This document shows positions 26,201 to 29,200 of a stretch of 64,000 nucleotides of DNA, piece by piece. This stretch comes from a plasmid: NCBI RefSeq assembly GCF_054482595.1, contig NZ_JBTHVH010000004.1. The stretch is one strand, 5' to 3'. Position numbers: made by a program. Within the stretch, counting starts at the first letter, position 1; the number at the start of each line of letters is the position of its first letter.

Positions 26201-29200
26201 CGCCGAACTCGACGGTTTAGATCCCCGCAAAGTCGATACATCAGGTATCAAAATTGCAGCCTGGCAGCAAGAACTGATTCTCGAAGCACTGGGTATTGTT
26301 GTTTATCCTGACTAATTGCTTTGATGTGTGATTTTAAACGCTCAAATTTATAAAACGAATAATATTGTCAACCTTGCAATAATAGACATAGGGACAACCA
26401 TGTATAAATTTTTACCCTCAGGCGTCTTCACAATAGAGCCATATAGCAGTGGGTCACTTAGTGGGCTTAATTTTTCCATTAAAGATAATATTAATATTGC
26501 TCAGTATAAAACATCATATGGTAGCCCATCTTGGCAAGTAAACATAAGGCTGCCATTTATAAGGCACTGTTGCAAAAATGTGGAGGTGATAGGGGTACTA
26601 CGCCGGAACCCCAGATTTTTCCGTCCGTTCAAATTATCCACGGTTGAGCAGCTTGATCCCGTCCGCCCGCAGTTGACCAACAGGGGAAATATGCCTGTAC
26701 AAAGTTTGCCGGGTTATCCCAAGTTCCTGGCATAGCGTACTGACCTTTGTTTCTGATTGTCCCATTGATGCCATTGCCAGTCGCAGTTTGACTGGCGTCA
26801 TTTTATAAGGTCGGCCGCCGTTCCGCCCACGGGCTCTTGCTGATGCCAGACCTGCAGTCGTTCTTTCAGCAATCAGTTCGCGCTCAAACTCCGCCAGTGC
26901 GGCAAAGATACCGAAGACAAGCTTGCCAGCGGCCGTTGTTGTGTCGATAGTCGCCCCGTGACCGGTCAGCACTTTCAGACCGGTCCCCCTCGCGGTCAGG
27001 TCGTGCACTGTATTAATGAGATGACGAAGATCACGACCGAGGCGGTCCAGCTTCCATACGACCGAGAGCATAAAAAATATTGGGGCAGCGTGAGCTATGC
27101 TGCCATCGCTGGTCCCTTCCCGTCACTTTGAAAACCCGGATACCAGCAGACAAATTTATCCTGCAGTTCGTTATTCAAAACGGCGGTCCGGGTCTGTAAC
27201 AAATAATGAGCCCCTTTTCTGCTCCACTGCATCTGCTGCTTTTTGGCCATTCGTCTGGCGATCACTTCATTGATCGTGGATTCCACAAACGCGGTTGATA
27301 CCGGCTCTCCGTACCGACGCATTTCGCCGTAGTTTGGGATCATCATCTTATTATTCCGGATGTAGGTATACATTTCATCCAGATGTTTTTGCAGGGATTT
27401 CAGGCTAGGATAGCTGAGTTCAGGGTCATCGCAATACATAACGCAATTATCAATATGTTCCAGCGCAGCGACAACATTGCCATGCCAGAGATATCGTTTA
27501 ATGCTTTCCAGCAGTGCCAGAACTTTACTCCCCGCCTCTGGATCTGATACCAGCAGTCCCCGGGCATATTGCATGAGCACCTTCAGCCTCATGGTGATAT
27601 GAAACCAGTCCAGCACATGCGTTGACTCAGGGTACATACCGAACTGGAGGTCCCTGAGATTATCCGCGCCGTCGGACAGAAAAAATATCTGCTGGTTGGC
27701 CTGCATTCCCTGCGCTGAAAGGTGGGTCATGAGCCTGCGTTCCGGATGACAGTCATCCTTCTGAACAAAACCGAAGCGGCGGGTGTCAGCAGGCGCACCA
27801 ACGGAAAAAGACTTCCCGGCAATAATTTCAAAATTACGCTTTTTGTCATCCCGATCGCGAACATAACCACCATCTATACCCACCACAAGCGGTTTTCCTG
27901 GCCTGGGCAGGTTCCCCCAGTCGCGGGGGCAGCCGGAAAGAAAACCTGAATGAGCTTCAGCCTCAGCGTCAAGACGCTGCGCCACCTGGCATAAATGATT
28001 CCTCACCGTTGAGGCATTCAGGCTGTGGCCCACCGGCAGAATATCTTTCAGCAGACGAGTCGTCATTTCATAGGAGATCATCGAGGCCCAGCGGGTTTCA
28101 ATATATTTCAGTGCCGGGTGAGAATAATCGCCGGCCCAGTCGCTGAGCAAACTGACTGTCTTTGTATCACTCTCTTCACAACGGCACCGGTACACCCGAA
28201 GCCCGGATACCGGAATAACGCCAAACAGCGTCCGGTACCGTATTTTCTGTTTGCCTTTGATTCTGCGCGCAGCAAGGCAGTGAGGGCACCGGATATGGTG
28301 TTGAGTATATTCGTCTGCCTGCAGCTGGACCACCGACTGCTGGACCGTATTCAGCAACAGCTTGGATTCTGACACCGATAATCCGATGTCGTTCCGGGTC
28401 TCCCCTGATTTCTGGATTGTCATCAGTTCCTCCGTTCGACTGGAGCCTGATTCATCGGTGATGACTATCTGGAGCGTCAGTTGCATCATTGCCTCCTGCT
28501 GTGGTGGATGACTATCTCCCGGCTACTGGTTGTTCATCTGGTGACGAAGCTTATAATATGTGGAAACGCCAAGGCCCGCATGGTCGCAGGCGATCCTGAG
28601 CCTGACCCCTCTGCTTCTGAGTGCGTCAATTTCCTGGATCTTTTTGATATCGGCGCCGGGGCGCCCTGTTTTTTCACCCCGTGCTTTTTTCGCGGCGATG
28701 CCGTCGGCCTGCCTTTCCTTCAGTAAGGCTCGTTCAAACTGGCTGAATGCCGACATCATGTGCAGCTGCAGTTCCTGCATCGGATTGTTTGTGCCGGCGC
28801 TGAACGTCAGCTGCTCTTTCAGAAAAATAAGGGTAACGCCCTGGTCACGAAGCCGGGTGGTGACAGCGCACATATCCGACATATTCCGGCAAAGGCGATC
28901 GATGGAATGAACCAGAAGCGTATCACCAGGGCGTAATTGCCCCAGGAGTTCCTGTAACCCCGGGCGGTTTGTGTCCTTCGCGCTGGCATGCTCAACACAA
29001 ATTTTATCAGGCTGAAAACCCGCCTTTGACAATGCCTCTTCCTGACGGGCCGTATTCTGATCGGCCGAGCTTACCCTGATGTAGGCATATTGCACGCAAA
29101 ACCTCCGGAAGGTCTTTAAACATCATAGAGATTTAAAGAATAATCCATAAACACTGATTTAGGGAGGTTTATAGACATTTTTTCGGGGATCTGAGAGGCA

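Follow-up and report, generated by a model that had tools for sequence, protein, structure and literature searches.

The plasmid DNA considered here, a stretch of 64 kb that we refer to as the window, raises a simple question: how did a solitary IS26-type terminal repeat come to stand downstream of qnrS1 with no insertion sequence attached to it? A motif scan of the window finds GGCACTGTTGCAAA, the 14-bp terminal inverted repeat of the IS26 family, as an exact match at positions 26563-26576 on the plus strand. Nine exact copies of this 14-mer are present in the window, and eight of them pair up as the ends of four complete elements, namely three copies of IS26 (17190-18009, 23825-24644 and 41902-42721, 820 bp each) and one IS1006 (35947-36765, 819 bp) that is 100% identical to elements annotated under that name. 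The ninth is the only copy without an attached IS body, as the initial annotation of this DNA had described it. The same annotation held that an exact 14-mer is unlikely to occur by chance, and the calculated expectation for 64 kb on both strands, ~0.0005, agrees with this; matches with two or fewer mismatches number 13, against a mean of 0.75 in shuffles. The orphan lies 248 bp downstream of the end of the qnrS1 open reading frame at 26315 and 58 bp from the stop codon of a resolvase gene (26634-26636, minus strand), distances that had been put at about 250 and 60 bp.

The outer end of the orphan repeat is 26563, and an IS interior would extend rightwards from it. The bases to its left are ATTTATAA, and the opposite IS end is gone together with its copy of the target site. 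The 820-bp body, the tnp26 gene and the second inverted repeat that an element of this kind would possess are all absent, and a Tn3-family repeat begins 29 bp in. A -10 element suitably spaced from the TTGCAA within the repeat was not seen by eye in either direction.

The junction that contains the orphan is widespread. An 801-bp query across it is at least 80% covered in 1,810 PLSDB plasmids and is matched at an identity of at least 99% in 2,139 PLSDB records, with hosts that include Klebsiella, Escherichia, Salmonella, Enterobacter, Citrobacter, Shigella and others; a 525-bp junction query gives 1,817 and 1,868 PLSDB plasmids on the same two measures. The comparison with known qnrS1 contexts that the initial annotation had proposed places the 14-mer at a known junction, found in more than 1,800 plasmids and belonging to the same platform as ΔISEcl2-qnrS1-ΔtnpR-ISKpn19. 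The same junction is also present in pQnrS1-cp17s, a 10-kb mobilisable plasmid (10,047 bases) in which no other copy of the 14-mer occurs in the 9,620 of 10,047 bases examined, and which is therefore without IS26 in those 9,620 bases. With more than 1,800 plasmids, pQnrS1-cp17s among them, sharing the junction at an identity of 99% or more, the scar was not made by an event in this plasmid, and the recency that the initial annotation implied has to be given up. In other words, the scar is a fixed, ancient remnant of the IS26 family with an ordinary history. The initial annotation had allowed that the 14-mer might be conserved non-IS sequence in qnrS1 contexts that lack IS26; the 14-mer is indeed present beside a qnrS1 gene with no IS26 in the bases examined, yet its origin is an IS.

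This conservation also bears on whether the orphan repeat is still active, that is, whether the Tnp26 produced by resident IS26 copies binds it and uses it as a target or one-ended substrate for IS26 rearrangements near qnrS1. Purified Tnp26 binds DNA fragments that carry the 14-bp repeat, and a TGT at positions 6-8 is conserved in the IS6/IS26-family repeat (PMC8477213). The orphan retains this TGT, which Tnp26 binding requires, and qnrS1 contexts have been heavily rearranged by IS26 (bioRxiv 10.1101/2024.04.24.590863), so that binding of the orphan by resident Tnp26 is conceivable. However, nothing in the present data points to clusters of breakpoints at 26563, and the known IS26 truncations sit elsewhere in the adjoining amidase fragment. 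To our knowledge, the IS26 reactions on record involve complete IS copies. Frequent reactions at the orphan are also hard to reconcile with a junction that does not vary across more than 1,800 plasmids, and we consider an active repeat very unlikely. Given the lack of a body, a partner end, a transposase and a convincing promoter geometry, the remnant most likely does nothing today.

Which element left the repeat behind is answered by the bases that follow it. Positions 26577-26591 read AATGTGGAGGTGATA, and the transposase-proximal end of IS26 reads TAGTCGGTGGTGATA at the corresponding place; the two agree at 10/15 positions, including the run GGTGATA, with a chance probability of 8e-4. Agreement with the other IS26 end is 6/15 (the three IS26 copies in the window serving as reference), and the full 29-mer matches IS26 at 24/29. 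The 29-mer at 26563-26591 on the plus strand is instead identical (29/29) to the ends of two elements on metagenome contigs, L079 and L087. Each of these elements is complete: it measures 819 bp, carries a 14-bp repeat at either end and is 89-90% identical to IS26 at the nucleotide level. The Tnp26-like transposase gene of L087 is intact and encodes 234 aa, and in L079 the transposase reading frame stops after 202 aa. A metagenome scan, with a pattern built to leave out IS26 and the qnrS1 junction, recovered 16 loci, all of which start with GGCACTGTTGCAAAAAT..GGAGGTGATA followed by a Tnp26-like gene (L090 having GGTGG for GGAGG). Ends that match at 28/29 are carried by plasmids of Erwinia amylovora, Serratia liquefaciens and Salmonella Anatum. 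The elements of the first two are annotated 'IS6 family transposase', and the Salmonella Anatum record is without a transposase annotation at that place.

The nearest relatives appear to reside in enterobacterial backgrounds, in that the flank of the L079 element is ~90% identical to a Pantoea agglomerans plasmid and the flank of the L087 element looks enterobacterial. Among the best 5,000 PLSDB records there is no element more than 92% identical to that of L087; the closest PLSDB match among the matches listed is at 92% (Serratia), and the rest are IS26 at ~91%. The orphan thus reads as the last 29 bp, on the transposase-proximal side, of a relative of IS26 that is seldom seen in sequenced plasmids. 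The parent type resembles IS26 in its 14-bp repeat, in its length of 819-820 bp and in its 234-aa transposases, which in the intact elements (L087 and others) start with MNPFKGRHFQ, as Tnp26 does. It differs in that the nearest relatives are 89-90% identical to IS26, and the remnant itself has no body, transposase gene or second end. Nothing else of IS26 or of the relative lies near the orphan, and the interior motifs of the relative are absent from the window.

IS1006 was considered as a source and rejected, its subterminal bases matching at only 3-5 of 15 positions. The window copy of IS1006 carries exactly the same 14-bp repeat yet is 75.6% identical to IS26, and for this reason the 14-mer alone cannot identify IS26. 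The 14-mer is shared by IS1006 and by a clade of ~90%-identical relatives and is not diagnostic of IS26, so solitary 14-mers should not be counted as IS26 activity.

These comparisons decide against the reading put forward in the initial annotation, in which an IS26-mediated deletion or recombination, possibly in this plasmid, left the orphan behind as a genuine IS26 end. In its favor, IS26 ends in the identical 14-bp repeat, three copies of IS26 are present in the window, and in other plasmids real IS26 elements truncate the same amidase fragment at other positions, as seen in the proteins P0012, P0014 and P0016, whose translation continues directly into a real IS26 end. Against this, bases 15-29 of the remnant differ from the two IS26 ends at 5/15 and 9/15 positions and match the relatives at 29/29. 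An adjacent deletion by IS26 would leave a whole IS26 and not 29 bp, and more than 1,800 plasmids share the fixed junction, one of them with no IS26 in the 9,620 bases examined. An origin from IS26 is therefore rejected on the subterminal bases (10/15 and 6/15, against 29/29 to the relatives), and the reading as a whole is very unlikely. What stands of the initial interpretation is that the 14-mer is transposable-element DNA at an old, IS-made junction that truncates an amidase gene; what does not stand is the attribution to IS26. The remnant is only 29 bp long because the end of a Tn3-family transposon cut it at 26592, and not because of an IS26-mediated deletion.

To the left, the remnant abuts DNA of Vibrionaceae type. 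A segment on the plus strand from 25447 to 26562, which comprises the upstream region of qnrS, qnrS1 itself and the 5' end of an amidase gene, is homologous by blastn to Vibrionaceae, with the homology to loci of V. mytili, Photobacterium ganghwense and Enterovibrio starting at 25447 in every case. The qnrS1 gene (25659-26315, plus strand) is an open reading frame of 218 aa that PLSDB records annotate as QnrS1 at 100%, and its protein matches chromosomal loci of Vibrio mytili (97% aa), Enterovibrio, Photobacterium and others. Downstream of qnrS, V. mytili is syntenic with the window, at 93% nucleotide identity, into the reading frame that starts at 26400. This frame is the 5' fragment of an amidase gene of Vibrionaceae origin, ~57 codons long (26400-26570, plus strand), with a deletion of 1 nt near 26549. 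The frame-corrected translation, ...GLNFSIKDNINIAQYKTSYGSPSWQVNHKAAIYKAL, fits the N-terminus of amidases of 388-416 aa in HMMER searches. It matches PRK08310 with E = 6e-6 over profile positions 13-61, and it contains the N-terminal amidase motif of the PF01425 / NCBIfam PRK08310 type, ...G-L-x-F-[AS]-[IV]-K-D-N-I-D..., then G-S-P-x-W-x3-H-x2-A-[VI]-x-N-A-[VL]. A sequence search of the PDB with the same fragment returned only noise.

The amidase alignments also locate the point at which the IS begins. The amidase consensus runs ...GYKTGYGSPxWxxxHPxAVxNAV/L-CVDQLL, and the HMMER alignments extend to query residues 57-60. In the closest homologue (P0040, on contig L097, which also carries a qnrS-like gene) the corresponding stretch is ...SPSWKEKHSVAFYNAL-CVEQLL. 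After frame correction the homologues align through ...HKAAIYKAL, and the homology then stops within the first 7-8 bases of the 14-mer, whose GCA CTG supplies Ala-Leu. The motif CV[DE]QLL is not encoded beyond the first ~7 bases of the 14-mer. An intact IS end thus truncates the amidase gene at about codon 58. Because the amidase frame runs two codons into the 14-mer and L097, a distant homologue, has GCACT at the same place, the breakpoint between amidase and IS is ambiguous by up to ~8 bases; the overlap would be either a coincidence or the product of a microhomology-mediated join.

A reading without any IS, in which the 14-mer belongs to the native amidase gene or matches by chance, is extremely unlikely: the homologues do align through ...IYKAL, with GCA CTG forming bases 2-7 of the 14-mer and GCACT present in L097, but past ~7 bases the consensus C-V-D/E-Q-L-L is not encoded, the full 29-mer equals the termini of complete IS elements, a 14-mer by chance is expected 0.0005 times per window, and an amidase-only reading of the whole 29-mer is rejected because HMMER, the alignment and L097 all confine the homology to the first 7-8 bases.

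The true donor, with its amidase gene intact, was not among the Vibrionaceae-type loci recovered. V. mytili was rejected as a readable donor, as its two recovered loci (L002 and L096) both part from the window sequence at 26502, through a break or divergence short of the junction. A second candidate IS end to the left, facing inward so as to form a composite unit and matching the repeat at 12/14 positions (25486-25499), was likewise rejected, being native and conserved in Vibrionaceae.

To the right, the remnant ends where a different kind of mobile element begins. The sequence GGGGTACTACGCCGGAACCCCAGATTTTTCCG... starts at 26592 and has the form of a Tn3-family terminal inverted repeat of ~38 bp (26592-26629, plus strand), beginning with GGGG and ending 4 nt before the tnpR stop codon. 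A Salmonella Poona plasmid carries a related resolvase region, at 75% identity, that aligns from window position 26591, and a Citrobacter plasmid carries a 35-bp copy, at 97%, that aligns from exactly 26592. The left flanks of the GGGG in the three contexts (window, Poona and Citrobacter) are unrelated to each other. Because homology starts at this point in three contexts with unrelated DNA to the left, 26592 behaves as a transposon terminus, and its GGGG start, its length of ~38 bp and its position next to tnpR mark it as of the Tn3 family.

The transposon itself is present only in truncated form. No second copy of the Tn3-type repeat occurs in the 64-kb window, a tnpA gene next to the repeat is absent, and the remainder of the transposon has been replaced by ISKpn19. 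What is left is ΔtnpR, the 3' part of a Tn3-family resolvase gene with serine-recombinase matches (26634-27063, minus strand). Its open reading frame spans 26634-27071 on that strand and encodes 145 aa, compared with 204 aa in pQnrS1-cp17s, and the homology to pQnrS1-cp17s ends at 27063, where ISKpn19 begins. The resolvase gene is thus truncated at its 5' end, as had been noticed at the outset, by ISKpn19 at 27063/27064. This element (~2.86 kb, ISKra4 family; 27064-29920, minus strand, with boundaries taken from comparison with L001) gives a match of 381 bits to an ISKra4 transposase and is annotated 'ISKpn19 family transposase' in PLSDB. Relative to pQnrS1-cp17s, ISKpn19 is inverted in the window, and 521 bp, comprising the 5' end of tnpR and the res region, are missing.

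On the far left, the qnrS1 segment is preceded by ΔISEcl2 (24645-25355, minus strand), an IS2-like element of the IS3 family recognised by a fragment of an IS2-type TnpA, its terminus read from the sequence. The name ISEcl2 follows the published qnrS1 platform, as given in the part of that account considered here (PMC5034289). ISEcl2 is cut by a complete IS26 (23825-24644, minus strand; 820 bp, both ends, tnp26) that also truncates intI1.

These observations can be combined into a history by applying a rule of polarity, under which the mover at any junction is the element whose end is intact. We hypothesize that the first event was the joining of an IS26 relative, by its end, to the Vibrionaceae-derived amidase gene that follows qnrS1, which would have interrupted this gene near codon 58. 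A Tn3-family transposon would then have set its terminal repeat 29 bp inside that IS, either through insertion or through intramolecular transposition with loss of the remainder of the IS. ISKpn19 would later have cut the resolvase gene of the transposon, and on the other side IS26 would have cut ISEcl2. The resulting block, ΔISEcl2-qnrS1-Δamidase-29 bp-IR-ΔtnpR-ISKpn19, may then have spread as a unit among plasmids of the Enterobacterales. Sequence identities, breakpoints and conservation are direct observations; the order of events, with the IS first and the transposon second, would be their simplest reading. Taken as a whole, a 29-bp fossil of a ~90%-identical IS26 relative, together with this stepwise history of the block, is very probably the best explanation of the locus. 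Insertion of the transposon would predict a reciprocal junction, ...CGTAGTACCCC followed by TGATAAAATTATGG..., in which the other transposon end is joined through a 5-bp duplication to the rest of the IS. No real match to this junction was found in PLSDB, and insertion and intramolecular deletion are for that reason not separable.

The position of the remnant suggests a further, more tentative idea. At 26562/26563 the end of the IS relative is the only mobile-element terminus that directly abuts Vibrionaceae-derived DNA, and the terminus of ISEcl2 (25355) is separated from the left boundary of that DNA (25447) by 91 bp of unrelated DNA. It is possible, though we would not favor it, that the 29-bp fossil and not ISEcl2 records the event in which qnrS1 was first captured from its marine donor. 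If so, the fossil would be the footprint of qnrS1 leaving a Vibrio mytili-like chromosome, and an intermediate host would be hinted at by the complete IS copies, found only in Pantoea/Erwinia-like environmental Enterobacterales. The remnant may thus serve as a candidate clue to the departure of qnrS1 from a marine donor, and the argument would be a historical one.

The remnant sits in a very well-known resistance module and is already known in kind; it is of little biological consequence and of some consequence for annotation. The ΔISEcl2-qnrS1-ΔtnpR-ISKpn19 platform is described as widespread in the portion of PMC5034289 considered here, and the corresponding portion of PMC5027574 describes Tn6292 as a presumed Tn3-family transposon with qnrS1 as an internal passenger. 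As far as those portions go, the gene order and truncations are the same as in the window, but neither account includes the amidase fragment, the 29-bp remnant or the Tn3-type repeat between tnpR and qnrS1. A Tn3-type repeat in that position places qnrS1 outside the transposon of the resolvase, and the Tn6292 model, to the extent that these portions represent it, may therefore need revision, with qnrS1 outside that transposon and not an internal passenger.

The orphan itself was very probably noticed once before. A paper of 2014 on pEBG1 reports four 14-bp 'IS26-associated inverted repeats' near qnrS1, two of them 1,932 bp apart (PMC4207749). In the window, the distance from the right repeat of IS26 at 24631 to the orphan at 26563 is likewise 1,932 bp, and because of this spacing one of the pEBG1 repeats is very probably the orphan described here. 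The authors of that paper took these repeats for the boundaries of a putative IS26 transposable element (PMC4207749), whereas the orphan here faces the wrong way for such an arrangement and is not IS26.

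A Tn3-type terminal repeat (26592-26629) lies between the 5'-truncated resolvase gene tnpR and qnrS1, and this position places qnrS1 outside the transposon to which the resolvase belongs. Such a placement conflicts with the published Tn6292 model, which treats qnrS1 as an internal passenger (PMC5027574).

The resolvase gene is cut by ISKpn19 (27064-29920), which, in a comparison with L001 5765-8317, is inverted in the window relative to pQnrS1-cp17s, a 10-kb qnrS1 plasmid with a full-length tnpR. Relative to that plasmid, the window also lacks 521 bp, comprising the 5' end of tnpR and the res region. 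Together, the inversion and the loss form the pattern expected of intramolecular ISKpn19 transposition. ISKpn19 encodes not only its transposase but also a serine recombinase of 190 aa, and it has a pRiA4b ORF-3-like gene. A related ISKra4-family element also adjoins the related resolvase on a Salmonella Poona plasmid (L077), a hint that this neighbourhood may be preferred.

Downstream of qnrS1, the Vibrionaceae-type amidase fragment is not only truncated but also frameshifted: compared with homologous genes, it has lost 1 nt at about 26549 (CAAG-TAAAC). In rare assemblies small deletions occur between ATAAGGC repeats (26543-26565; proteins P0001 and P0006). The amidase gene downstream of qnrS in Vibrio mytili is disrupted too (loci L002 4856-4863 and L096 4115-4233), with the break at a different point, the equivalent of window position 26502. 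At both V. mytili loci the contig stops within 120 bp of the break, which suggests a repeat or insertion sequence at that point.

On the left, Vibrionaceae homology starts at 25447, separated from the ISEcl2 terminus (25355) by 91 bp of unrelated DNA (25356-25446), and no mobile-element end is found at this boundary. An exact 12-nt direct repeat, AGTCTAGCCCTC, occurs at 25350-25361, where it crosses the ISEcl2 terminus, and again at 25628-25639, 20 nt upstream of the start codon of qnrS1, a site at which the sequence is different in the homologues from Vibrio.

The surroundings have the mosaic traits typical of a multiresistance region: the intI1 reading frame (22819-23931) continues into IS26 at 23825, losing only its last codons, and tetR(A) (30214-30891) lies immediately to the right of ISKpn19. 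Further along is a complete, 819-bp IS1006 (35947-36765), 100% identical to PLSDB elements so annotated. It is 75.6% identical to IS26, shares exactly the same 14-bp terminal repeat, and would probably have been counted as an IS26 copy in the initial annotation.
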